Assembly: GCA_024682015.1 (NCBI GenBank)
Contig: JAIKZT010000011.1
Location: 1 to 43,783, forward strand
Source: Clostridia bacterium
GTDB lineage: Bacteria; Bacillota; Clostridia; Peptostreptococcales; Anaerovoracaceae
DNA: 43,783 nucleotides
Direction: 5' to 3'
Shown in pieces: positions 1 to 34,341 of the stretch (position 1 is its first letter; each line of letters starts with the position of its first letter). The notes under the pieces are model-generated. The model was not told where the DNA came from, did not search any database, and saw only the letters and a program-made list of their open reading frames with translations. The position numbers were made by a program, and so were the translations under genes.

Positions 1-1
1 C

Positions 2-208
2 AAGTTCGTGACGATCACGACCGACGAAGTATCCGAAGAGGCGCCCGTCCTGATCGCTTCCTACGATGCGGACGGCAGGTTCCTGGGACTCGTCGTGGTC
101 ACCGAACCCGGCGGCAGCGGCGAATCCGAAGGCGGCGCCGCTGAAGTGAAGCTCTTCTGGGTCGACGAGGCCTGCGCGCCGAAGGAAGAGGAAAAGGACC
201 TGCCCTGA
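2..208 (+). CDS. 3' end of an unidentified protein-coding gene, open at the window edge
   Basis: Frame open from base 2 to TGA at 206-208. No recognisable domain in the 68 residues. A hairpin plus T-run follows at 295-345. Confidence 0.35.
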   Translation, partial: KFVTITTDEVSEEAPVLIASYDADGRFLGLVVVTEPGGSGESEGGAAEVKLFWVDEACAPKEEEKDLP

Positions 209-293
209 GTCAGGGGACGTTTCCGCCGACTCAAGTGGAACAAGGAAACATCTCCATGTCTCATGTGATTCACTGAACTATATTTGATAGAGC

Positions 294-331
294 CAATCCG
301 AACGTCCGGTAAATGCCGAACGTTCGGATTT
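294..331 (+). promoter_or_regulatory. Inverted pair of PurBox-like sites, candidate PurR operator of the pur operon
   Basis: On the minus strand, 319-331 reads AAATCCGAACGTT, 12/13 to the PurBox consensus AWWWCCGAACWWT. On the plus strand, 294-306 reads CAATCCGAACGTC, 10/13. The boxes are inverted with a 12-nt spacer. A weak promoter, TTCCCA (348-353)-17-TGTAAT (371-376), lies just downstream. Confidence 0.4.
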
Positions 332-345
332 TCTTTGTGTTTTAT
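295..345 (+). terminator. Rho-independent terminator-like hairpin downstream of the upstream gene
   Basis: AATCCGAACGT (295-305) pairs with ACGTTCGGATT (320-330), followed by TTCTTTGTGTTTTAT. The same inverted repeat also resembles a PurBox pair (next feature). Confidence 0.5.
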
Positions 346-594
346 CGTTCCCAAATCACCACATCTGCATTGTAATCATGCCACTTTTCCTGTACATTTA
401 TTCTGTACCAATACGCATCTGAAATCTTTTTCACAGACCGATGGCCGAAGGGGTGGCCGCAGAGAGGCTCATGCCGAGAAGCGCAGTCCGAGGCGACCTC
501 GTCCGAGGCGAGCATCGCAGGGCATGAGTACGGCTGCGGACAGGACCCCGAAGGAAAATTTCACTCTAAAATGATCCAACAAAAGGAGATCCAC

Positions 595-1083
595 ATGAAA
601 AAAGTCGGCATCATCATGGGCAGCGACAGCGACGCGGGCGTGGTCAAAAAGGCCACCGACATTCTGCGGACGCTGGACGTGCCCTTTGAAGTTCACGTAT
701 ACTCGGCGCACCGCACGCCTCTGCAGGCGGCGGAATTCGCCAAGAGCGCGCAGGCAAACGGCTTCGGCGTGCTCATCGCGGCGGCCGGCATGGCGGCTCA
801 TCTGGGCGGCGTGCTCGCTTCGTACACCTGCCTGCCCGTCATCGGCATTCCCTGCAAGTCCTCCGCGCTCGAAGGAATGGATGCCCTGCTCTCCACGGTC
901 ATGATGCCGCCCGGCATCCCCGTGGCGACCGTCGCCATCGACGGCGGCGCGAACGCAGGGCTTTTGGCAGCGCAGATCCTGGCGCTGTCCGAACCTGCCC
1001 TCGCCGAAAAGCTCGCGGCCAAGCGGGCTTCGGACGCGGAAAAGGTCCTGGAAAAAGACGCGCGCATTTTAGAAAAACTATAG
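595..1083 (+). CDS. purE: N5-carboxyaminoimidazole ribonucleotide mutase (PurE, class I-like SAHRTP motif)
   Basis: MKKVGIIMGSDSD..., SAHRTP and GIPC motifs. AAGGAG RBS at 583-588 before ATG 595. The track ORF starts at 571, but the internal ATG has the RBS. Confidence 0.9.
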   Translation: MKKVGIIMGSDSDAGVVKKATDILRTLDVPFEVHVYSAHRTPLQAAEFAKSAQANGFGVLIAAAGMAAHLGGVLASYTCLPVIGIPCKSSALEGMDALLSTVMMPPGIPVATVAIDGGANAGLLAAQILALSEPALAEKLAAKRASDAEKVLEKDARILEKL

Positions 1084-1092
1084 GAGGCAGCC

Positions 1093-2529
1093 ATGGGCGG
1101 ATTTTTCGGCATCACTTCTTCCAAGGACGTCGTCCTGGACGTCTTCTTCGGAACAGACTATCACTCGCATCTGGGCACGAAGCGCGGCGGCATGGCCGCC
1201 TGGGACGCTCAGATCGGCCTGCAGCGCGAGATCCACAACATCGAAAACTCCCCGTTCCGCACGAAATTCGACCACGTGCTGGACGAAATGCGGGGAACGG
1301 CGGCCATCGGCTGCATTTCCGACACCTATCCCCAGCCGCTGCTGATCCGGTCCAACCTGGGTGTATACGCCATCACGACGATCGGCGTCATCAACAACGC
1401 AGCGGACCTCATCGACAACTACCTGTCCTTCTCCGGCGGACACTTCGACGTCATGACCGGCGGCCAGGTGAACGGCACAGAGCTCATCGCGGCGCTCATC
1501 AACCAGAAGAGCACGTTTGAGGAAGGCATCAGTTTCGCGCAGAAAAGCATCGAAGGGACGGCCAACATCCTCATCCTCAAGAACAACGGCAGCCTCATCG
1601 CCGCCCGCGACCGCCTCGGCCGCATCCCCGTCAAGATCGGCAAGAACGAGGAAGGCTACGCGGTCTCGTTCGAGGACTTCGCCTATCAGAAGCTCGGCTT
1701 CGACGACTACAAGGAGCTCGGCCCCGGCGAGATCGTCGAGGTCACCCCAAAGCAGGTGAAGCAGCTGAAGGCGCCCGGCAAGAAGAAGCGCATCTGCGCG
1801 TTCCTGTGGAGTTACTTCGGCTACCCGACCGCCACGTATGAGGGGGTCACCGTCGAGGCGATGCGCTACCGCAACGGCGCAATCATGGCGGAGAACGACC
1901 TGAAGCGTGAAGGCGGCCGGGAGCTGATCGACGCGATCGACTACATCGGCGGTGTGCCCGATTCCGGAACGCCCCACGCCATCGGCTATTCTAACTGCAG
2001 CGAAAAGCCGTTCGCGCGGGCCTTCATCAAGTACACGCCCACCTGGTCGCGCAGTTTCATGCCCACAAACCAGAAGGACCGCAACAAGATCGCCGAGATG
2101 AAGCAGATCCCCGTGAAGGAGCTCATCAAGGACAAGGACCTGCTGTTCGTCGACGACTCCATCGTGCGCGGCACGCAGCTGCGCGAGACCGTCGAATTCC
2201 TGTACAAGAGCGGCGCGAAGGCCGTGCACATGCGCTCCGCCTGCCCGCCCATCATGTACGGCTGCAAATACCTGAACTTCTCGCGCTCCATCTCCGACAT
2301 GGAGCTGCTGGCGCGGCGCGTGATCCTCGAGCTCGAAGGGCCGGAAGGCTTCCAGCACATCGATGAGTACGCCGATGACAAGACCGAGCGCGGCAAGAAG
2401 CTGCGCGAAACGATCTGCGAAAAGTTCAACTTCTCTTCCCTCGAATTTCAGACGCTCGAAGGCGTCATCGAAGCCATAGGCCTGCCCGAGTGCGACCTGT
2501 GCACCTATTGCTGGAACGGCAAAGAATAA
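1093..2529 (+). CDS. purF: Amidophosphoribosyltransferase-like protein (divergent PurF; N-terminus MGGFFG, no Cys after Met)
   Basis: PRTase motif [14 protein letters not shown]. Cys cluster [12 protein letters not shown] ... [10 protein letters not shown]. Sits in the pur operon, with TAGGAGG RBS before ATG 1093. Confidence 0.8.
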
Positions 2530-2539
2530 GGAGACACGC

Positions 2540-3586
2540 ATGAAGAATTCCCAATCCGCAAGCTACGCCGCGGCAGGCGTGGACATCACCGCGGGCTACA
2601 AGGCCGTGGAACTGATGAAGGAGAGCGTTAAGAGCACGTACACCCCGGGCGTCGTAGGAGACATCGGCGGCTTCGGCGGGCTGTTCATGCCCGATCTGTC
2701 CGGCATGAAGACCCCCCTGCTCGTGTCCGGCACGGACGGCGTGGGCACGAAACTGCGCATCGCCTTCCTGATGGACAAACACGACACCGTCGGCATCGAC
2801 TGCGTGGCCATGTGCGTCAACGACATCATCTGCGTCGGCGCGAAGCCCCTGTTCTTCCTCGATTACATCGCCTGCGGCAAGAACGTGCCCGAGCGCATTG
2901 CATCCATCGTGTCCGGTGTCGCGGAAGGCTGCCGGCAGGCGGGAGCGGCCCTCATCGGCGGTGAGACCGCAGAGATGCCAGGTTTCTATCCGGTGGACGA
3001 ATACGACCTGGCCGGCTATTCCACCGGCATCGTGGACCGGGACGCCATGATCGACAATAAGGCCATGAAGGCCGGCGACGTCATCATCGCCCTGCCCTCT
3101 TCGGGTGTTCATTCCAACGGATTCTCCCTCGTGCGCAAGGTATTCGACGTCGAGAACGCGGACCTGAAGAGCCCGGTCGAAAAGCTCGGCGGCAGGTCCC
3201 TGGGCGAAGCGCTGCTCGCGCCGACGAAGATCTACGTCAAACCCGTGCTGGCGCTGATGAAGGAAGTGCAGATCAAAGGCATCTCCCACATCACCGGCGG
3301 CGGTTTCTACGAAAACATCCCCAGAAGCATTCCCGAAGGGCTGTGCGCGTCCATCGACAAGGCCAGCGTCCGGGTCCTGCCCATCTTCGACCTCATCGCC
3401 GAGACGGGCGGCATCCCCGAGCGCGACATGTTCAACACGTTCAACATGGGCGTGGGCATGAGCATCGTCGTCTCCCCCGAAGACGCGGACAAGGCGCTGC
3501 AGATCCTGAAGGCAAACGGCGAAGACGCGTACGTCATCGGCACCGTAACGGAGAGCAAAAATGGCGAAGGCATCGAACTCTGTTAA
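2540..3586 (+). CDS. purM: Phosphoribosylformylglycinamidine cyclo-ligase (AIR synthetase)
   Basis: [18 protein letters not shown] and GGETAEMPG motifs; AGGAGA RBS. Confidence 0.92.
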
Positions 3587-4244
3587 GCGGCCTGACCCGC
3601 CCAAAGCCCGCATCGCCGTGCTCATCTCCGGCGGCGGCACGAACCTGCAGGCCATCCTGGACGCCCAGAAGGGCGGGCTTCTCACCGACGGCGAGGTCAC
3701 GCTCGTCATCAGCAACCGCAGCGGCGCCTTCGGCCTTGAGCGCGCGAAGAACGCGGGCGTACCGGCTCTGACGATCACCAGGAAGGGCTGCGGCAGCCAG
3801 GAGGCTTTTGAAGACGCCCTCATGAAGGCTCTCGACGAGAACCGCACCGACCTCATCGTGCTGGCCGGCTGGCTCGCGATCCTGTCCGAGCGCTTTACCC
3901 GCCATTACGAACAGCGCATCATCAACATCCACCCGGCGCTCATCCCGAGTTTCTGCGGCGAAGGCTTCTACGGGCTGAAGGTCCACGAAGCGGCCCTCGC
4001 CAAAGGGGTCAAGGTGAGCGGCGCTACGGTGCACTACGTCAACGAGATCCCCGACGGCGGCGCGATCATCGCGCAAAAGGCCGTGCGGGTCTACCCGGGC
4101 GACACGCCCGAAAAACTGCAGCTGCGCATCATGAAGCAGGCTGAATGGAAGCTGCTTCCCAAGGCCGCGCAGGACATTTCCAGACAGATACGCCTGGGGG
4201 CTCACCCGGGCTTTGCGAAGCCCGCCCGCGGGCAGAACGAATAA
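3561..4244 (+). CDS. purN: Phosphoribosylglycinamide formyltransferase
   Basis: [26 protein letters not shown] and GATVHYV motifs. GGAGAG RBS; overlaps the purM end by 26 nt. Has a C-terminal extension of about 35 aa. Confidence 0.88.
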
Positions 4245-10700: not shown

Positions 10701-11493
10701 CCGCGTGTTCATCCCGGCCTTCCCGGGCACGAACAGCGAGTATGACTCCGCCAAATACGCGGAGGCGGCCGGCGCAGAAGCGAAGATCTGCGTCATCCGC
10801 AACCTCACTCCGGACGACATCCAGCGCTCCGTCGAGGAAGTGGCCGAGGAGATCGCAAAGAGCCAGATGATCTTCATCCCGGGCGGTTTCTCCGGCGGCG
10901 ATGAACCGGACGGATCCGGCAAATTCATCACGGCGTTCTTCCGCAGCGGCGCCATCAAGGAAGCCGTTACGGAGCTGCTCGAAAAACGGGACGGTCTGAT
11001 GCTGGGCGTCTGCAACGGATTCCAGGCCCTCGTCAAGCTCGGCCTCGTTCCCTACGGAAAGATCATCGACACCGACGAGAACTGCCCGACCGTCACGTTC
11101 AACAAGATCGGCCGCCTGCAAAGCAAGATCGTGCGCACGCGCATCAGCTCCTGCATGTCGCCGTGGCTGGCGAAGACCCAGGTGGGCGACGTCTACAACG
11201 TGGCCATCTCCCACGGTGAAGGGCGCTTCTACGCGAGCGAAGAGCTGATCCGAAAGCTGGCTGCCAACGGACAGATCGCGGCGCAGTACGTCGACCTCGA
11301 CGGAAAGCCGTCCATGAGCGTGGACGTTACGCCGAACGGCTCCGCTTATGCCATCGAAGGCATCACCTCGCCCGACGGCCGCGTCTTCGGCAAGATGGGC
11401 CACATCGAGCGCTACAGCAAGGGTATCTTCCGCAACATCCCGGGCAACTACGACCCGAAGCTGATGGAAGCGGCGGTGGAATACTTCAAATAG
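7774..11493 (+). CDS. purL: Phosphoribosylformylglycinamidine synthase, single-chain (PurS/PurL/PurQ fused)
   Basis: About 1240 aa with the FGAM synthetase core and a C-terminal glutaminase (GVCNGFQAL, HGEGRF). GGAGGA at 7759-7764 favours ATG 7774 over GTG 7768. Confidence 0.92.
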   Translation: MVYRIFVEKKPGFDLEAKSMLADLKSSLGIDALENVRMFNRYDAQNLSKEQFDYAVKYVFSEPQMDIASEAPDFGDATVFAVEFLPGQFDQRADSAVQCIQLIFQGERPLTRSARVYALYGDLSEKDVNAIKKYVINPVEAREAAAEKPETLVVNYDIPTEVATVEGFIDMVDEDLPRYIADNGLAMDEQDLAMVRDYFASEHRDPTITEIKMIDTYWSDHCRHTTFNTVIDDVTFEDELLQNAWNDYMNTRKFLGRTKPVCLMDLATIAVKQLKSEGKMDKLDESDEINACTIKMTVNHDGKEEPWLLLFKNETHNHPTEIEPFGGAATCTGGIIRDPLSGRAYVYAAMRVSGAADPTRPLSEALPGKIPQKRLTQTAAAGNSSYGNQIGLPAGVVEEIYHPGYVAKRMELGAVVAAAPAENVRREVPAPGDVVILLGGGTGRDGIGGATGASKAHDVHSVETCGAEVQKGNAPEERKMQRLFRNGEATRLIKRCNDFGAGGVSVAIGELADGLDINLDLVPKKYEGLDGTELAISESQERMACCVAAEDVEKFLALAAEENLNAVPVAKVTDTNRLVMHWNGKTIVDISRSFLNTNGADKHITAAPAPAVWDEELAEGSFVDNLKRVAGDLNSCSRRGMVERFDSNVGAATVLSPFGGKYQRTPIQAMVHKVAVEKGDTDTCSLMAFGFNPFISSSSPYHGAYLAVVESCAKLVAAGAEFKDVYLTFQEYFEKLGKDPKRWGKPLAALLGAFEAQMALGVGAIGGKDSMSGTFENLDVPPTLVSFAVTTDKIDHIISNEFKAPGHKVVWIRPEMNEAGLPTGESLMKIFGEVTELQRSGKAAAVYTPGMGGVAAAVMKMAFGNRIGFSFADDLDLQDVFATSYGSFIVEMADGYCEKCAAKVAPESTLLGVTTEEEAFTAGEESISIADVAEIYESRLEDVFPCNIPTEEDAPIETFSSDKKCFAAPAIKVAKPRVFIPAFPGTNSEYDSAKYAEAAGAEAKICVIRNLTPDDIQRSVEEVAEEIAKSQMIFIPGGFSGGDEPDGSGKFITAFFRSGAIKEAVTELLEKRDGLMLGVCNGFQALVKLGLVPYGKIIDTDENCPTVTFNKIGRLQSKIVRTRISSCMSPWLAKTQVGDVYNVAISHGEGRFYASEELIRKLAANGQIAAQYVDLDGKPSMSVDVTPNGSAYAIEGITSPDGRVFGKMGHIERYSKGIFRNIPGNYDPKLMEAAVEYFK

Positions 11494-11496
11494 CGC

Positions 11497-11525
11497 TTGC
11501 AAATTGGCAAAATCTGTGATATATA
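11497..11525 (+). promoter_or_regulatory. Sigma-A-type promoter directly after purL, driving a short transcript
   Basis: TTGCAA (11497-11502), 17-nt spacer, TG at 11517-11518 (extended -10), TATATA (11520-11525). Confidence 0.55.
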
Positions 11526-11531
11526 TGATTT

Positions 11532-11621
11532 GAGGGACGAAAATACCGCTGTTGGACGGCGGTGTCTCCTCTAAAAGTTGAGTAGAATCAGCCGCTTATC
11601 CAGCGGCTGATCCTATTTTTT
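11532..11621 (+). ncRNA. Candidate ~90-nt sRNA, putative type I antitoxin convergent with the small toxin-like ORF
   Basis: Bounded by the promoter at 11497-11525 and the terminator hairpin at 11587-11611 plus T6. No ORF with an RBS. Contains a CUCCUC anti-SD-like tract. Its 3' end overlaps the 3' end of the minus-strand ORF. Confidence 0.4.
11587..11621. terminator. Bidirectional intrinsic terminator
   Basis: ATCAGCCGC-TTATCCA-GCGGCTGAT hairpin. Followed by CCTATTTTTTG on the + strand and TCTACTCAACTTTTAG on the - strand. Confidence 0.7.
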
Positions 11622-11702
11622 GCGGCCTTTCCAGGCCGCGGCTGCAATCAGGACCGTAAGCAACACCAAGGTGTATTGGAATAGTCCTTCATATGTCACC
11701 AT
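11613..11702 (-). CDS. 29-aa hydrophobic peptide resembling putative holin-like toxins (type I toxin candidate)
   Basis: MVTYEGLFQYTLVLLTVLIAAAAWKGRKK: one TM segment and a basic tail. Strong RBS AAGGAGGTGATCC before ATG 11702. The 62-aa track ORF start at 11801 has no RBS. Confidence 0.5.
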   Translation of the reverse strand: MVTYEGLFQYTLVLLTVLIAAAAWKGRKK

Positions 11703-11771
11703 AGGATCACCTCCTTTCCTTTGCCCGAAGGCTCCGTAATCAGAGGAGGCACCGCCCAGCGGTATGATGGA

Positions 11772-11801
11772 ATTGTAAATTATATCCAGTCTCTTTGTCA
11801 A
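11772..11801 (-). promoter_or_regulatory. Promoter for the small toxin-like ORF
   Basis: On the minus strand: TTGACA (11796-11801), 18-nt spacer, TACAAT (11772-11777). The predicted ~63-nt leader has GCCUCCU able to pair with the SD AGGAGGU. Confidence 0.5.
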
Positions 11802-11824
11802 GAAAAATTTACCATTATTTGCAT

Positions 11825-11856
11825 AAAAAAGAGACGGCCTGCAGACAAGCCGTCTC
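11825..11856 (-). terminator. Intrinsic terminator of the PNPOx-family gene
   Basis: GAGACGGC (11831-11838) / GCCGTCTC (11849-11856) hairpin, followed on the minus strand by TTTTTT. Confidence 0.7.
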
Positions 11857-11885
11857 AGCTGCTTTTGAGCTGTCCTTCGCGCCTT

Positions 11886-12284
11886 TTAGAACCGGATCTC
11901 CCGGGGCGGCGCCGTAAAGGAACTGATGGTGGCAACAGCCTCCGTGATGCGATAAACCACGGCGTTACCGTCGCCGGGCGCATACATGGCCTTCAGATCC
12001 GGATAGGATTCCAGCATGTGGGCGACGGCCTCCACGCTGTCATCCGCGACAGCCTTGCCGCATACGCGGATCCATTCGCTGCCGTTGAAAGCGCAGATCT
12101 CGACCTTGGGGTTGGACTCCATCTGCTTGGACACGTCCTTCACCTTGCCAGTCTGAATCGTCAGGCATCCGTCGTAGAGATCCACCGTGCCGAAGGGCCG
12201 TACCCGGGGCTGATCGCCGTCCGCCGTAGCCAGATAATACGTACCGCATGCCTTTAAAAATTCATACACTTCGTTCATAAACAT
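11886..12284 (-). CDS. Pyridoxamine 5'-phosphate oxidase family (FMN-binding split-barrel) protein
   Basis: Small split-barrel-like sequence (GTYYLATADGDQPRVRPFG...); AGGAGA RBS. Confidence 0.6.
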   Translation of the reverse strand: MFMNEVYEFLKACGTYYLATADGDQPRVRPFGTVDLYDGCLTIQTGKVKDVSKQMESNPKVEICAFNGSEWIRVCGKAVADDSVEAVAHMLESYPDLKAMYAPGDGNAVVYRITEAVATISSFTAPPREIRF

Positions 12285-12296
12285 TGTCTCCTATTC

Positions 12297-12710
12297 TTAA
12301 AACCTCGCTTCAATGTATCTGTTTAATTTTTTTGTGTCGTACTCGCCCTTGAAGTTGCTCTGGAAGCGCTTGACCGTAAAGCTGTTGAACTCGACGATGT
12401 GGCGGTATCGGATGAGCCCCACGACAAAGGGTATGCCCGCGCACACCCATCCGAAAGGCGCCGTCCTGATGCAGGCGGTGAAGAGCACGAACAGCATGAG
12501 CGCTGAGATGATGACGCCGGCGATCTGTTTTTTCGGCAGCAGGTCCTTCACCGTCTGCCGCGCGATGACGCCCTCCCGCACCATCTCCTCGCTGAACTGC
12601 TTCAGCACCGTAAACTGCGCCACCGTCGTCAGCAGCACCGGCACAACGCCGAAAAATGTGAAGAGAGCCAGCAGCACGTCGCCGATGAGCTGTCCCATAT
12701 TGCCGTTCAT
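12297..12710 (-). CDS. Hypothetical integral membrane protein
   Basis: Three to four hydrophobic segments. GAGAGGAG RBS favours ATG 12710 over the TTG at 12716. Confidence 0.55.
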   Translation of the reverse strand: MNGNMGQLIGDVLLALFTFFGVVPVLLTTVAQFTVLKQFSEEMVREGVIARQTVKDLLPKKQIAGVIISALMLFVLFTACIRTAPFGWVCAGIPFVVGLIRYRHIVEFNSFTVKRFQSNFKGEYDTKKLNRYIEARF

Positions 12711-17583: not shown

Positions 17584-19239
17584 ATGAACAAAACCAATGC
17601 GATGAAATACAGGCCCGTCATGCTCTGCATCATGGACGGGTTCGGCCTCGCGCCGGCAGGCCCTGGGAACGCTATCGCGGCAGCCAGAACGCCAAACCTG
17701 GACGCGATCTGGAAGGCTCATCCCCACGCGCAGCTGCAGGCCTCGGGCAGAGCCGTCGGCCTGCCCGACGGGCAGATGGGCAATTCCGAAGTGGGTCATA
17801 CGAACATGGGCGCGGGGCGCGTCGTCTGGCAGGATCTGGCCAAGATCACGGCAGACATCGAGAGCGGCGTCTTCTTCGAAAACAAAGCCTTTGCGGCTGC
17901 GATAGATCATGTGAAGTCACGCGGCACTGCCCTGCACCTGTTCGGGCTGATGTCCGACGGGGGCGTGCATTCGCACATCGAACACATCAAGGCGCTGGCG
18001 CGCCTGGCGGCTGCGCGGGGCGTTCAGACGCTCTGGGTGCACTGCTTTCTGGACGGCCGCGACACGCCGCCCACGTCGGGCGCAGGCTACGTCGAGGACA
18101 TGGAGCGCGCGCTGCAGGCAGAGGAGAAAACGCTCCGGGACAGCGGTCTGGACGCCTCCTACCGCATCGGCAGCGTCTGCGGGCGCTACTACGCCATGGA
18201 CCGCGACAAGCGCTGGGAGCGGGTCAAAGAAGCCTACGAAGCGCTCACCGAGCCGGTTCTGCCGGGCTCCATCGGCGGCAGCGATGCGGTGAAGGCCGCC
18301 TACGCCATGGATGAGACCGACGAATTCGTGCGGGCCCGCGTCTGCAACGGGTTTGACGCCATCGAGGACGGCGCAGCCGTCATCTTCGCGAACTTCCGCC
18401 CGGACCGGGCGCGGGAGATCACGCGGGCGTTCGTGGATCCGGACTTCGACGGTTTTGAGCGGCAGCGCGTCGTAAAGGACCTCTGCTATGTCTGTATGAC
18501 GACCTACGACGCGGCCATCCCGAACGTGCTCGTCGCCTACCCGCCCAAGCAGTTGAAAAACACGCTCGGCGAATACGTCTCCGGCCTCGGCCTGACACAA
18601 CTTCGCATCGCGGAGACGGAGAAATATGCGCACGTAACGTTCTTCTTCAACGGCGGCGTGGAAGAGCCGTATCCGGGCGAAGAACGCATCCTCATTCCCT
18701 CCCCCAAGGTCGCGACCTACGACCTGCAGCCCTCCATGAGCGCCCCCGAAGTCACGGACGCGGTCTGCGCGCAGCTTTCGGCAGCGGACTGCCCGGACTT
18801 CATCATCCTGAACTTCGCCAACTGCGACATGGTCGGCCACACCGGCGTGTTCGATGCGGCCGTCAAGGCCGTGGAGACGGTGGACGCCTGCGTGGGGCGG
18901 GTCTGCGAAGCCATGCGCAAGGCAGGCGGCCGCCTGTTCATTACGGCGGACCACGGCAACGCGGACGAGATGCTCGACGAGGCAGGCAACGTGGTAACGG
19001 CCCACTCCACGAACCCGGTGCCATTCATCTTCTGCGACTTCGCCAAAGACGCCGCATCCTGCGGCGCTGCAGACGCCCCAGCCGGTCGAGGCCTGCACAA
19101 AACAGCCGCAGACAGTGACCCGCAGCCTTGTTTTACCGGATTGTCGGACGGTGCGCTATGTGACATCGCACCGACCATGCTGGAAGCCGCAAGCCTGCTC
19201 CAGCCGCTCGAAATGGAAGGAAAAAGCCTGCTGCGCTGA
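17584..19239 (+). CDS. gpmI: 2,3-bisphosphoglycerate-independent phosphoglycerate mutase
   Basis: CIMDGFG, MGNSEVGH, NFANCDMVGHTG and ITADHGNA motifs. GGAGGG RBS before ATG 17584, with extended -10 TGgTACAAT just upstream. Confidence 0.9.
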   Translation: MNKTNAMKYRPVMLCIMDGFGLAPAGPGNAIAAARTPNLDAIWKAHPHAQLQASGRAVGLPDGQMGNSEVGHTNMGAGRVVWQDLAKITADIESGVFFENKAFAAAIDHVKSRGTALHLFGLMSDGGVHSHIEHIKALARLAAARGVQTLWVHCFLDGRDTPPTSGAGYVEDMERALQAEEKTLRDSGLDASYRIGSVCGRYYAMDRDKRWERVKEAYEALTEPVLPGSIGGSDAVKAAYAMDETDEFVRARVCNGFDAIEDGAAVIFANFRPDRAREITRAFVDPDFDGFERQRVVKDLCYVCMTTYDAAIPNVLVAYPPKQLKNTLGEYVSGLGLTQLRIAETEKYAHVTFFFNGGVEEPYPGEERILIPSPKVATYDLQPSMSAPEVTDAVCAQLSAADCPDFIILNFANCDMVGHTGVFDAAVKAVETVDACVGRVCEAMRKAGGRLFITADHGNADEMLDEAGNVVTAHSTNPVPFIFCDFAKDAASCGAADAPAGRGLHKTAADSDPQPCFTGLSDGALCDIAPTMLEAASLLQPLEMEGKSLLR

Positions 19240-19254
19240 TCAGCGGAAGCCCCT

Positions 19255-19655
19255 TCTCAATCGCCCCAAGGGATGGATCTGATCAAACGCTGAGAGCAAT
19301 GAATTTACCAGTTGTTGCAAGAGATACATTTTCCAGTTTCTGCAGGCGTTGAATTCGCCAGACGTCGGAAACGGTAGATCTAATCAAATGCTGGGAGCGG
19401 TGGATTTGTCAGTGGTTGCGAGTGGTGGATTTATCAATTGCTGCAGGCAACGAATTCGCCAGCCGTCGGGAGCGGCAGATCTAATCAAATGCTGGGAGCG
19501 GTGGATTTGTCAGTGGTTGCGAGTGGTGGATTTATCAATTGCTGCAGGCAACGAATTTGCCAGCCGATACGAGCGACAGACCTGATCAAACAATGGGAGT
19601 AGCGAATCTTTCACTAGTTGCAGACTGTTGGCTTGGTCAAACGGCATGGAAAAGG
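19255..19655. repeat. Noncoding tandem repeat of about 4 x 101 bp, each unit made of four degenerate ~25-bp subrepeats
   Basis: Units start at 19351, 19452 and 19553. Units 19351-19451 and 19452-19552 differ at 4 of 101 positions; the flanking units are diverged. Approximate subrepeat consensus GGNGGATNTNTCANNNGNTGNGAGY. Confidence 0.85.
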
Positions 19656-19774
19656 ATGCATCTCGCTCTGTGGACTTAAAGTTCCCATTACTGCCCATTT
19701 ATGGCCTTGGCATGGAGTTCCAGAGTTATCACAAAATGTTGCATAATATACTGGGATCGTGCATATATACCCGT

Positions 19775-19887
19775 ATTATTCACCCCCTCCAAATGAATCA
19801 TTCCATATGATGATCCGTATGGATTCGCGGAACGTAAAAGATATCCGCAAATCGCCTGTTTAGGATGATTTGCGGATATTTGTTTTC
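19775..19887 (+). ncRNA. Candidate ~110-nt sRNA with a C-rich tract
   Basis: Promoter-like TTGCAT (19739-19744), 18-nt spacer, TGc-ATATAT (19760-19768). Contains a CACCCCCUCC tract. Ends at the hairpin 19841-19853/19867-19879 plus TTGTTTT. No RBS-preceded ORF. Confidence 0.3.
19841..19887 (+). terminator. Intrinsic terminator-like hairpin
   Basis: ATATCCGCAAATC / GATTTGCGGATAT, a 13-bp stem followed by TTGTTTTC. A diverged second copy of the hairpin at 20022-20058 lacks the T-run. Confidence 0.6.
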
Positions 19888-20274
19888 ATTCCAGGATAAT
19901 GACAAACCCTTTATCGACCTGCTTCCAAATGTCCTATCGGGATTCTGAAACGATATAAGGCATGTATCGACCTGCATACCTTGTTTCAGAACCCTTTGGA
20001 CACCCTATTATCCCATACCTATATCCGCAATTCTCGCATTCTGGCGATTTTGCGGATAATTGTTCCGTGCCGCGTTGCAATTCGCCACAGAAATACCATC
20101 ACTGGGGACATCCTCTGCGGGCAGCACATCCGTGCAACAAGTCCCCAAGGTTTCAATCTGGCAGAGGAGACATCCCCCACAGGCAGTCCATCAGGACGGA
20201 TATTCCTCGCTGGTACTTCGTCAGTGCGGCCATCCCCCATGGTTCAGTCTGTTAGTGGAGACATTCCCAGCGGT

Positions 20275-31886: not shown

Positions 31887-33443
31887 TCAGCGGCGCTTCA
31901 GAAGCCCTTGCTCCGTCAGTTCGAAGACGGTCCCGCACACCTCTTCGATGTACTTGCGGTCGTGGGATACGCTGATGACCGCGCCCGGAAAGCCCGCGAG
32001 CATGCCGCGGATGACCGGGCCGGACAGGGGCGAGAAGTTTCTGGTCGGCTCATCGAGCAGGAGCGCGTTGGCGCCGGAGAGGTTCAGACGCAGCAGGAAG
32101 ATCTTCGCCTGCTGCCCGCCGGACAGTTCCTTTGCCGGATGTTCCATTTCCGCGGTCGTAAACCGCAGGGCGCCCAGAAACGTCCGGACCATCGTGCGCT
32201 CCTCCGCACCGCCTTTCGTGCAGATGCAGTCCACGGGATTCTGTTCCAGATCGAGCAGATCCGCGTAGTTCTGCGGCATGTAGGCGGCGCGGATGTCCGT
32301 CCGGACCTTCAGCTGTTCCCAGACAGCCCGCAGCAGCGTCGTCTTGCCGCAACCGTTAGGACCGATGATGCAGACCTTTTCCGGACCGCGCACGAGCAGG
32401 CGGATGTCCGAAGCGAGCAGGCGGCTGTCCGGAGCCTTCAGCTGCGGGAGCGCAAAGTCCAGCACGGTCTTGCCGGCCGGGATGGGCTGTGCGTTTTCCC
32501 CCAGCGTGAAGTCGATCGGGTTCTCCTTGACAGGCTTTTCGGTCATCTGCGCGTCTTCACGCTCAAAGCGCTTTTTCAGCGACTTGACCGTGTGCATCTT
32601 GTCCTTGAGGTTCCTGGCAGCCTGCATCGGATCGGGCATGTCCTTGCCGGCATGGTTGATCGTGACCTGCGCGCGGGCTACGCTCTGCAGGATGCGTCTG
32701 TACTTTTCATCGCGGATGCGCTTGTCCCGCGCGTCGCTCGCCGCCTGCTGGGCCTGCTTTTCGAACGCGTTCAGCCGTTCCCGCGCGTACTGCGCGTACG
32801 GCATGCGCGCCACCGTATGGCGGCACTGCTGCTTGCGGTGCACCTGCTCCAGGTGGATGACCACGCCGGCCGTGCGCTCGATCAGCGTCTCGTCGTGCGA
32901 AATGAAGAGGACGATGCCGGGGAAGCCAAGGATGACCCGCTCCAGGTACTCGAGCGCGCCGATGTCGATGTCGTTGGACGGCTCATCCAGCAGAAGGACC
33001 GTCGGCTGGGAGATCAGCAGGCGCAGCAGCTGGACCTTGACCTTCTCCCCGCCCGACAGGCTGCCCATGCGCTGATCGCTGTAGCAGATGTCCGCGCTCA
33101 GCCCGAGGCGGGCGGTTTCCTTCGCCAGCTTGCCGGGCGGAGTGTCGAAGAACAGAGGTTCCTCGCAGAAAAACTCGTAGACGGTCCTTTCCGCATCCTG
33201 CAGGGACAGCTGCTGCGGCAGATATGCAAGCCGCTCGCGGGCAGCGCTCAGGATTCCATCCGCTTCCGCATAGTCCTCGATCAGGGCGGGATCCGCGATC
33301 CACTTCAGCAGCGTGGACTTGCCGTTGCCCTCCTCCCCGATGATCACGGCCTTGTCGCCCGCGTTCAGCGTGCAGGAAAAGTCCTCCAGGATCGTCCGCA
33401 GATCCTTCGTGTGGACGATCGTCAGATGTTGTATTTGAAGCAT
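31887..33443 (-). CDS. ABC-F family ATPase, possible ARE-type ribosome-protection protein
   Basis: Two NBDs: Walker A GEEGNGKST and GPNGCGKTT, signatures LSGGEKVK and LSGGQQAK. No TM domain. Charged interdomain linker of about 80 aa. GAGGTGAT RBS before ATG 33443. Confidence 0.85.
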   Translation of the reverse strand: MLQIQHLTIVHTKDLRTILEDFSCTLNAGDKAVIIGEEGNGKSTLLKWIADPALIEDYAEADGILSAARERLAYLPQQLSLQDAERTVYEFFCEEPLFFDTPPGKLAKETARLGLSADICYSDQRMGSLSGGEKVKVQLLRLLISQPTVLLLDEPSNDIDIGALEYLERVILGFPGIVLFISHDETLIERTAGVVIHLEQVHRKQQCRHTVARMPYAQYARERLNAFEKQAQQAASDARDKRIRDEKYRRILQSVARAQVTINHAGKDMPDPMQAARNLKDKMHTVKSLKKRFEREDAQMTEKPVKENPIDFTLGENAQPIPAGKTVLDFALPQLKAPDSRLLASDIRLLVRGPEKVCIIGPNGCGKTTLLRAVWEQLKVRTDIRAAYMPQNYADLLDLEQNPVDCICTKGGAEERTMVRTFLGALRFTTAEMEHPAKELSGGQQAKIFLLRLNLSGANALLLDEPTRNFSPLSGPVIRGMLAGFPGAVISVSHDRKYIEEVCGTVFELTEQGLLKRR

Positions 33444-33460
33444 GTCGATATCACCTCGCA

Positions 33461-33494
33461 ATAAAAAGGCCCGTTTCGCAGGCGAAACAGACCC
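33461..33494 (-). terminator. Attenuator-type intrinsic terminator in the ABC-F leader
   Basis: On the minus strand: GGGUCUGUUUCG-CCUG-CGAAACGGGCC followed by UUUUUAUU, ending about 10 nt before the SD of the ABC-F gene. Confidence 0.55.
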
Positions 33495-33822
33495 AAACAA
33501 AAAGCGCCATTGATATCGATGCGATCAACAGGGCTTCTGAACGGCGATCTGATTCGGCCTGCGCACAAAAGGAAGGCACCCCGTAGAGGAGCCCTGCTGA
33601 CGCAAGATCCAAATCAAATCGTTATTTTCTCATCGGCTACCTGTTATCCCTTCTCAAAATCTCTTGTATTGTTATGATACACCGCCCGGCAGGCCTTCGC
33701 AAGAAGGCCGCCCGGTTTGTAACATGATTTTCATATAACCGCGCTTATACTCTCTTCCGGCTGTCCTTAACGCTATTTACACCATTCAAAAGTCCGCCAT
33801 ACAGCAGCCTTCCCTAAGCCGA

Positions 33823-33985
33823 GAAAGAAGGTGCGATGTTACCAAAGCCGCTTATCTGCTGGTTTGGTAACTGAATTTCGTTGCAGTTATCGCGAAACAC
33901 TGCCAAATGGAACGATTCGGCGCCTATTTCGTTACCGTTCGCAAAAACCCAACTGGATGGTAACCATTTTTCGTTACCATAAGAA
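33823..33985 (-). repeat. R module copy A (GGTAAC/GTTACC hairpin array)
   Basis: Aligns base-for-base with copy B at an offset of 244 bp. Contains GGTAAC-N8-GTTACC at 33959-33978 and degenerate sites at 33866-33885 and 33909-33936. Confidence 0.8.
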
Positions 33986-34066
33986 ACCAGCATAACCCAC
34001 AGGTCCGCTACTGCCACATCCTAACCATTGATTCTAACATCATCCGCGCACCTGCCTTTGATTGGT

Positions 34067-34229
34067 GAAAGAAGGTGCGACGTTACCATGGCCGCTTATT
34101 TGCTGGTTTGGTAGCTGAATGTCGTTGCCGTTATCGCGAAACACTGCCAAAGGGAACGATTTGGAACCTTTTTCATTACCATTCGCCAAATCTCAATCAG
34201 ATGGTAACCTTTTTTCGTTACCACAAGGA
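34067..34229 (-). repeat. R module copy B
   Basis: Same about 160-bp module as copy A. GGTAAC-N8-GTTACC at 34203-34222. Confidence 0.8.
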
Positions 34230-34261
34230 CTAACACAATCCGTAACACTGCAGGAGCACGG

Positions 34262-34316
34262 TCTTTTATGCCACGCAAAATGCACAGATCTGGCGCCCTA
34301 CCTTTTCCGTACGAAC
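34262..34316 (-). repeat. Duplicated 3'-terminal fragment of the orphan gene
   Basis: About 55 bp (cacggtcttttatgccacgcaaaatgcacagatctggcgccctaccttttccgt) match 34330-34386, the stop-codon region of the CDS, with a 68-bp offset and a handful of substitutions. Confidence 0.7.
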
Positions 34317-34341
34317 CACAGCGCTGTAGAAACACGTCCTT

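Follow-up and report, generated by a model that had tools for sequence, protein, structure and literature searches.

The stretch 11497-11801 of the window (positions 1 to 43,783, the whole of the analysed DNA, of contig JAIKZT010000011.1, GenBank assembly GCA_024682015.1) appears to be a type I toxin-antitoxin-like cassette, complete in itself and of the bsrG/SR4 kind, a reading to which we give a probability of about 0.72. It lies in a rumen Clostridia genome, between the convergent genes purL and a PNPOx-like gene, and this compact unit of 330 bp joins a minus-strand gene for a 29-amino-acid (aa) hydrophobic peptide to a putative convergent antisense RNA. A preceding sequence-only reading had proposed the geometry of 3'-overlapping type I systems such as bsrG/SR4; that geometry is now supported by coding constraint on the peptide gene, by conservation of the antisense unit, and by a predicted helix closing the toxin messenger RNA (mRNA) that resembles helix P1 of bsrG. 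We infer both transcripts, their ends and the toxicity of the peptide.

The peptide gene is a minus-strand open reading frame (ORF) running from 11702 to 11613, with its ATG at 11702, 29 codons and a stop codon at 11615-11613; its product is MVTYEGLFQYTLVLLTVLIAAAAWKGRKK. A Shine-Dalgarno sequence (SD), GGAGG at 11714-11710, stands 7 nucleotides (nt) ahead of the ATG. Both ORF and SD had been noted beforehand, and both are found where they were placed. A JGI contig (L001), a metagenome contig (L082) and Logan assemblies of rumen samples supplied close strain variants. In L082, six positions of the 90-nt ORF are changed relative to the window, every change being synonymous, and strain X3 adds one further synonymous change and Tyr4His, giving seven synonymous changes to one non-synonymous among the strain variants together. 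In a set of 14 distinct DNA sequences, the codon-pair differences at codons 2-8 number 312 synonymous and 0 non-synonymous, compared with 280 and 1074 at codons 10-26; protein-level selection therefore maintains the eight-residue head MVTYEGLF. Judged by these substitution patterns, the 29-aa ORF is a real gene under purifying selection.

Searching 1.84 billion representatives with the peptide returned two relatives, and a subsequent profile search raised the family to 26 related proteins; a search with the 62-aa run-on ORF returned a single near-identical strain only. Family peptides are 26-29 aa long and begin MVTYEGLF(Q/A)(F/Y), with MVTYEGLF invariant, followed by a hydrophobic stretch and then a basic end. 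The genes next to them differ: sepF in L083-L088, an AAA_14 gene in L089, csoR/copA in L094, a MoxR-type ATPase gene in L096, DUF1385/prmC in L099, a Phd/YefM antitoxin gene in L101 (809-1069), a LytTR gene in L102 and an HTH_3/Peptidase_S24 repressor pair in L103 (750-1402). A search of viral contigs gave one match, L097 (IMG/VR contig, 1-3211), and annotated phage and plasmid collections gave no family match; the settings of L097, L103 and L101 suggest mobile or prophage regions. The family search that had been recommended thus finds the ORF conserved across unrelated contexts. A search of a literature library found no paper containing MVTYEGLF, and the family, previously unnamed and found across gut bacteria, is apparently undescribed.

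Rumen contig L083 carries two copies of the peptide gene 3.6 kb apart (129-218 and 3708-3797), which encode AAAFHGRKK and AVAFHGRKK variants and each have their own antisense module. Elsewhere the stop codon or frame is lost after the lysine tail and the ORF runs on to 40-70 aa (L089:159-371, L094:3001-3189, L096:3001-3162, L102:1507-1629); in L094 the loss is TAG to TGG, and L089 additionally lacks the antisense part. These run-on members may be decaying copies or assembly errors.

The peptide had been likened to putative holin-like toxins, a likeness that its relatives approach and that the window peptide does not show by profile score. Seven of 12 family members match PF16935 (Hol_Tox, putative holin-like toxin) at 14.7-21.4 bits over the full profile, for which the curated cut-off is 23.3 bits, and four relatives weakly match a PHROG holin family. 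BsrG, in a sequence 100% identical to the SPbeta genome, scores 34.5 bits against PF16935. The family has the Hol_Tox-like traits of an M-x-x-Y-E-x-L N-terminus, one hydrophobic helix and a C-terminal lysine cluster (MVTYEGL...GRKK, compared with MTVYESL...QKKK in BsrG), and its membership of Hol_Tox is probable, with the curated threshold not reached. Matches of relatives to the NCBIfam families PepG1 and ComI were rejected: they lie far under the cut-offs and reflect the hydrophobic helix only.

An unlikely alternative that deserves to be weighed here is that the peptide is a small conserved membrane protein whose specific role is not toxic, such as the modulation of a membrane enzyme or of a competence or division factor, and that the antisense RNA simply tunes its level. 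The fact that MVTYEGLF never varies favours a specific interaction over generic membrane damage, and BsrG itself does not permeabilise membranes (PMC8309996); weak NCBIfam matches of both the relatives and BsrG to ComI, a small competence inhibitor, indicate that Hol_Tox-like peptides can have regulatory roles. On the other hand, the family is multi-copy and scattered over unrelated contexts, with some members beside type II antitoxin or phage-repressor genes and some without a stop codon. It also has a tightly sequestered SD and a predicted dedicated cis-antisense RNA, and all of these are usual marks of type I toxins.

Expression of the peptide gene would start from its own promoter, TTGACA-18-TACAAT, as had been proposed; it agrees with the consensus at 11 of 12 positions and is the sole promoter called by the scanner in 11000-12400. 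Strain variants L001 and L082 keep it unchanged except for one spacer base, and toxin promoters stand at the equivalent position in L083 copy 2, L092, L094 and L103. Flanking the window promoter is an 11-nt inverted repeat (AATTGTAAATT at 11771-11781 and AATTTACCATT at 11806-11816, 91%), which may be an operator or a chance match. In the fold of the leader, GCCUCCUC pairs with GGAGGU around a GCC-UUCG-GGC hairpin, the SD sequestration foreseen from the DNA; folded alone, however, the leader is not stabler than shuffled sequence (z = -0.3), and the leader-alone SD hairpin was therefore rejected as a statistically unusual structure. Across the family the SD and the pyrimidine tract upstream of it change in step (CCUCC/GGAGG, CCCCC/GGGGG, CUCCC/GGGAG). 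Within the toxin mRNA, the stretch made up of spacer and start region, UGAUCCUAU (11701-11709), is also perfectly complementary over 9 base pairs (bp) to AUAGGAUCA (11612-11620) at the stop codon and terminator base of the same mRNA; L085 retains 8 bp of this complementarity, including one G-U, and one 9-mer match is about what chance would give in an RNA of 230 nt.

The terminator scan placed a plus-strand terminator directly behind the toxin stop: a 13-bp hairpin with its stem at 11587-11611, extendable to 11583-11615, followed by T6 at 11615-11620. The plus-strand U-tract is templated by the Lys-Lys-stop codons of the toxin gene (AAAAAATAG), and the same relation between the last lysine and stop codons of the toxin and the U-tract of the small RNA holds in all complete modules. 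With the purL stop codon at 11491-11493, this hairpin is first of all the purL terminator. It had been taken as a shared bidirectional terminator that would limit the overlap of the two RNAs to some tens of nt, and the plus-strand half of that proposal stands. On the minus strand a poor U-tract, UUCUACUC, comes after the first hairpin, and AUUUUCGUC comes after a second one. Transcription of the toxin mRNA may therefore continue past the first hairpin, with an overlap of perhaps about 85 nt. This overlap would then probably comprise the whole antisense RNA rather than the terminator only.

The antisense promoter had been described as strong. Its elements are present on the plus strand (TTGCAA at 11497-11502, a 17-nt spacer and TGaTATATA ending in the -10 box at 11520-11525) and its position is conserved in relatives, but judged alone it is weak. 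A promoter is found at the counterpart position in every other complete module, as the suggested comparison with related genomes was meant to establish, and antisense signals are conserved in nine further modules. These promoters read TTGACT-16-TGnTATAAT in L094 and L097, TTGACA-17-TGcTATCAT in L099, TTGACA-18-TATACT in L092, TTGTAA-16-TATAAT in L101, and TTGCCA/TTGCTG-17-TGaTATAAA in L083 and L085. The best scores in the expected 90-nt interval were 9, 9, 11, 11, 12, 12, 12, 10 and 9; a score of at least 11 occurs in 0.45% of background windows, and five modules reach a level attained by <1% of random windows. From each of these promoters a two-hairpin RNA of 83-117 nt is predicted.

The RNA that would start at this promoter and end at the hairpin behind the toxin stop is the roughly 90-nt noncoding transcript proposed beforehand. 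Its promoter and terminator signals are both present, and the predicted 91-nt plus-strand RNA folds with z = -5.9. Seven predicted small RNAs of 83-110 nt all consist of a 5' stem-loop, an A/U-rich linker and a terminator, with z ranging from -2.8 to -6.2 for six of them; all were folded individually, a MAFFT alignment of the whole small RNAs being too poor for RNAalifold. In L085, where the convergent gene is sepF, the sequence past the ORF matches that of the window, with the hairpin directly behind the stop, CAACUUUU-GAGG and CACCGCC...GCGGU, and with CTTGCTGATTTCCAGAATTTGTGATATAAAG on the opposite strand where the window has CTTGCAAATTGGCAAAATCTGTGATATATATG. By these signals, the ORF, the predicted convergent promoter and the predicted two-hairpin antisense RNA form one conserved unit in loci whose neighbours differ. 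Rfam gave no family match over the whole window, the best score in 11400-11900 being 19.6 bits against a threshold of 75.

The CUCCUC tract noticed earlier in the small RNA is present. As a direct anti-SD acting in trans it was rejected for the window: it offers only 4-5 bp, with a duplex energy within the shuffle range. The best window duplex between the small RNA and the leader and start region (-28.6, against -23.2 +/- 3.0 in shuffles) contains large loops. The best explanation of the tract is its complementarity to the 3' arm of a helix predicted to close the toxin mRNA.

That helix goes beyond anything the sequence-only reading had claimed: the 5' leader of the predicted toxin mRNA is complementary to its own 3' region. 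An inverted repeat of 15 nt at 93% joins GGCGGUGCCUCCUCU (11756-11742) to AGAGGAGACACCGCC (11572-11558). The same kind of repeat surrounds the ORF in L085, L094 and L083 copy 2, and by inspection also in L092, L097, L099, L101 and L102. Between modules the variable part of the arms is wholly different yet complementary (CCUCCUC/GAGGAG, UGCCUCC/GGAGGCA, UCCCC/GGGGA, CUCCC/GGGAG, CAGUC/GACUG, GUUCCA/UGGAAC). The joined-arm alignment A7 has 86.7% of cells paired compared with 72.6% in shuffles, a level that 0 of 500 shuffles reach; 9 of its 15 pairs carry changes on both sides, and sliding the partner by 1-3 columns lowers pairing to 37-62%. Modelled from the predicted start to the second hairpin, 8 of 8 transcripts have a closing helix of 22-40 bp in their minimum free energy (MFE) structure. 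For the 230-nt model of the window toxin mRNA the MFE is -109.4 kcal/mol (z = -8.0), and the identical folding procedure, run as a positive control, reproduces helix P1 of the bsrG mRNA. In these alignments and models the closing helix is P1-like and covaries across the family.

Inverted repeats around a gene that turns up in many places could also be the recombination ends of a small palindromic mobile element rather than RNA pairing partners, and the cassette mainly such an element. The repeats of L083 copy 2 are 27 nt long and extend into both promoters, which themselves form the inverted repeat, and the sites differ and are often directly behind a convergent gene. We nevertheless regard this as very improbable: the arms covary, tolerate G-U pairs on the toxin strand, lie inside the transcribed regions and form a helix that matches the probed P1 of bsrG, and no transposase, target-site duplication or empty-site pair was seen.

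The closing helix would bear directly on the SD. In the window model it occupies the leader CCUCC, and the SD is found only in a weak 4-bp hairpin; masking the 3' region covered by the small RNA returns CCUCC to GGAGG in the window, and the corresponding change of SD partner is predicted in L085, L083 copy 2 and L097. We infer a switch from the covariation of the helix and from the probed bsrG/SR4 pair. The minus strand would give a structured mRNA of about 180-230 nt, encoding a 29-aa membrane peptide distantly related to Hol_Tox and BsrG, that reads past the hairpin behind the stop codon and is closed by a helix of about 25 bp between its leader and its 3' region. In this closed state the leader anti-SD would be occupied and the SD held only by the weak 4-bp hairpin. 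The plus strand would give a roughly 90-nt antisense RNA from its own promoter, ending at the hairpin behind the toxin stop, and its sequence would also be present in the 3' ends of purL transcripts. Fully complementary to the 3' region, this RNA would probably make first contact through the complementary terminator loops and then open the closing helix; the resulting long duplex is a likely RNase III substrate, and in the freed leader CCUCC would pair with GGAGG and turn translation off.

A number of observations weigh against a type I system of this kind. At the protein level, the window peptide has no match in Pfam, Hol_Tox included, even at an expectation value (E) of <= 10, and none in NCBIfam, PHROGs or PADLOC; the Hol_Tox scores of its relatives are all under the curated cut-off, and hhalign of the family against the single BsrG sequence gave a probability of 14%, which is not significant. 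As to the closing helix, the arms and the modelled transcript ends were chosen with knowledge of the repeats, and such inverted repeats might conceivably persist for reasons that act on the DNA itself. L092, L099 and L101 show no predicted SD switch; in these modules the SD pairs with a leader pyrimidine tract in both states. In strain variants L001, L082 and X2 the leader GCCUCCUC has become GCUCCCUC with no compensating change in the 3' arm, which adds mismatches to the closing helix. As to the antisense RNA, the -10 box TATATA of the window promoter lacks the conserved final T, the scanner made no call there, and 9% of random 90-nt windows, or 22% of AT-rich ones, attain the promoter's score of 9. 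No RNA run containing the window stretch was found; rumen metatranscriptome X13 has depth 0 over 11537-11871 and reads on the neighbouring PNPOx-like gene, and the RNA data for relatives are all unstranded contigs.

The points on promoter score and RNA coverage would also fit a locus with no independent small RNA, whose plus-strand features are the purL 3' untranslated region (UTR) and terminator and whose promoter-like sequence is AT-rich spacer; the -35 box begins 4 nt past the purL stop, and the hairpin has the textbook form of a terminator for purL. We consider this improbable. The peptide gene is accompanied by promoter, 5' stem-loop and terminator whether sepF, some other gene or no gene lies downstream, and the promoter is near consensus in five such loci. 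In the nearest purL relatives the sequence past the purL stop is unrelated to the cassette (the contig of the nearest genome stops 37 nt after purL), and the element therefore came with the cassette. The peptide was absent from all 80 purL loci of the nearest sampled genomes (Oscillospiraceae and Acutalibacteraceae metagenome-assembled genomes at <=66% purL identity, plus one at 91%), which together with the unrelated sequence past purL indicates that the cassette arrived at this site as a unit. Even with no independent small RNA, read-through from purL would supply the antisense sequence.

Among relatives, two mouse-gut metatranscriptomes have contigs that cover only 429-732 of L097, a span that begins approximately at the toxin promoter and stops shortly before the small RNA start. 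At L097:520-600, contigs from runs X25, X26 and X28 diverge just before and after the MVTYEGLF codons into other leaders and other hydrophobic tails; several paralogous modules therefore occur, and are probably expressed, in the same mouse-gut samples.

The reading as a bsrG/SR4-like cassette gains its mechanistic content from structure probing by Jahn and Brantl (PMC3834814). In the bsrG mRNA, nt 1-35 and 232-262 form the long helix P1 and the SD lies in a 4-bp G-C region; SR4 makes first contact via its terminator loop, and once bound it leaves nt 1-33 unpaired and lengthens the SD helix to 8 bp, so that translation is inhibited on top of RNase III-dependent decay (PMC3834814). At the locus itself, in SPbeta, the SR4 terminator lies directly behind the bsrG stop with the KKK codons as U-tract template, and the SR4 promoter is TTGCAA-18-TATAAT. 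The two systems share the peptide start M-(T/V)-(V/T)-Y-E-(S/G)-L, one hydrophobic helix and a lysine end; a convergent antitoxin gene, a terminator hairpin behind the toxin stop and lysine codons that template its U-tract; and a long 5'-3' helix closing the toxin mRNA with the SD in a short G-C hairpin, predicted for the window. By the models of the window, L085, L083 copy 2 and L097, though not by those of L092, L099 and L101, antitoxin binding at the 3' end may likewise release the 5' arm and tighten the pairing of the SD. They differ in that the window peptide has 29 aa and falls under the Hol_Tox threshold, whereas BsrG has 38; in that the predicted antisense RNA of the window has about 90 nt and two hairpins, whereas SR4 has about 180 nt and four; and in that the window has no separate toxin terminator past the closing helix, where the 3' arm and AUUUUCGUC probably serve. 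The window cassette, known from sequence alone, is chromosomal and stands behind purL, whereas bsrG/SR4 belongs to the Bacillus subtilis prophage SPbeta.

Other type I systems are more distant in design. The pairs txpA/RatA, bsrE/SR5 and yonT/SR6 have the same convergent promoters, 3'-end overlap and small hydrophobic toxin, but their antitoxins act mainly via mRNA decay, and the SD-coupled closing helix is described for bsrG. TxpA-like peptides, some annotated as holin-like toxins, were reported in Clostridiales by Fozo et al. 2010 (PMC2887945). The fst/RNAII pair (par, pAD1) is similarly a compact convergent pair with a shared bidirectional terminator and an antitoxin of <100 nt. In par, however, direct DNA repeats make the antitoxin complementary to the translation start region of the toxin; the repeats of the window are inverted, and its small RNA therefore resembles the leader instead of complementing it. 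Such start-region complementarity is absent from the window, and among the relatives only L099 and L100 carry the sequence that would provide it: an 18-nt direct repeat of the translation start region, GACGCTATGGTTACATAC, in the 3' region (L099:1244-1261 and about L099:1362-1379, and also L100). In these two the antisense RNA is therefore complementary to the start codon region as well (RNAduplex -37.2 against -20.8 +/- 2.6). In hok/Sok and aapA1/IsoA1, too, the ribosome binding site is made accessible or not by pairing between the 5' and 3' ends of the toxin mRNA, but there it is the 5' region that the antisense RNA binds, and the mRNA must be trimmed at its 3' end to become active, whereas the antisense RNA of the window would cover the 3' arm; unlike hok/Sok, the window cassette has no mok-type leader ORF. 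Because the Hol_Tox matches are subthreshold, and because the window peptide and RNA have no match in Pfam, NCBIfam or Rfam, we would describe the cassette as a new member family of the bsrG/txpA kind that probably works like bsrG/SR4.

The layout of the cassette is given in Table 1. Its surroundings in the window are housekeeping genes: purD, purL (identified by its Pfam domains GATase_5, AIRS_C and FGAR-AT linker), the PNPOx-like gene, a PHP-domain gene and one for an AddA-like helicase-nuclease. Elsewhere in the window, 19001-20000 and 33001-36000 have a G+C content of 0.48-0.54 compared with about 0.62 in the remainder, and may be acquired islands or RNA genes.

Table 1. Layout of the predicted cassette and its outer edge, in window coordinates
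Feature	Position	Strand	Remarks
Toxin-gene promoter TTGACA-18-TACAAT	11772..11801	-	11/12 match
Predicted toxin mRNA 5' leader	11703..11765	-	Start at about 11765, placed from the -10 box
Contents of the leader	5' closing-helix arm 11740-11765; anti-SD CCUCC 11745-11749; GCC-UUCG-GGC hairpin; SD GGAGG 11710-11714	-	
29-aa peptide gene, MVTYEGLFQYTLVLLTVLIAAAAWKGRKK	11613..11702	-	Single hydrophobic helix, basic tail
Hairpin immediately 3' of the toxin stop	11583..11621	.	Plus-strand terminator for the antisense RNA and purL
Closing-helix 3' arm (GAGGAGACACCGCC...CAGCGGUAU), then AUUUUCGUC to about 11536	11543..11574	-	Likely true 3' end of the toxin transcript
Predicted antisense small RNA, about 90 nt	11532..11621	+	5' stem-loop 11532-11571, A/U-rich linker, terminator hairpin, U6
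Antisense promoter TTGCAA-17-TGaTATATA	11497..11525	+	Starts 4 nt past the purL stop codon
Terminator of the upstream PNPOx-like gene	11831..11856	-	Outer edge of the cassette on that side; terminator scan, gene by Pfam

A broader picture can be drawn from this layout, although we think it doubtful in its entirety. The quasi-palindromic cassette, with two homologous inverted promoter-leader ends, the 29-aa gene and a shared terminator, would be a selfish unit that lands behind the stops of convergent host genes (purL here; sepF elsewhere) and becomes their terminator. Extra antitoxin would then come from read-through of the host gene, and expression of a target-specific, MVTYEGLF-headed peptide would thereby be tied to transcription of the host operon.

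Modules of this type are overlooked, the peptides being too short for gene callers and profile thresholds and the RNAs being in no RNA family library. The family signature found here offers a way to recognise them: a MVTYEGLF start, lysine codons that template the antisense terminator, and inverted leader-like repeats around the ORF. The invariant eight-residue head is also a concrete starting point for finding the binding partner of the peptide. The cassette is not a new kind of system; rather, it extends a known mechanism to uncultured gut Clostridia, and it suggests that the closing helix opened by an antitoxin, worked out in one Bacillus prophage system, is an ancient conserved design.

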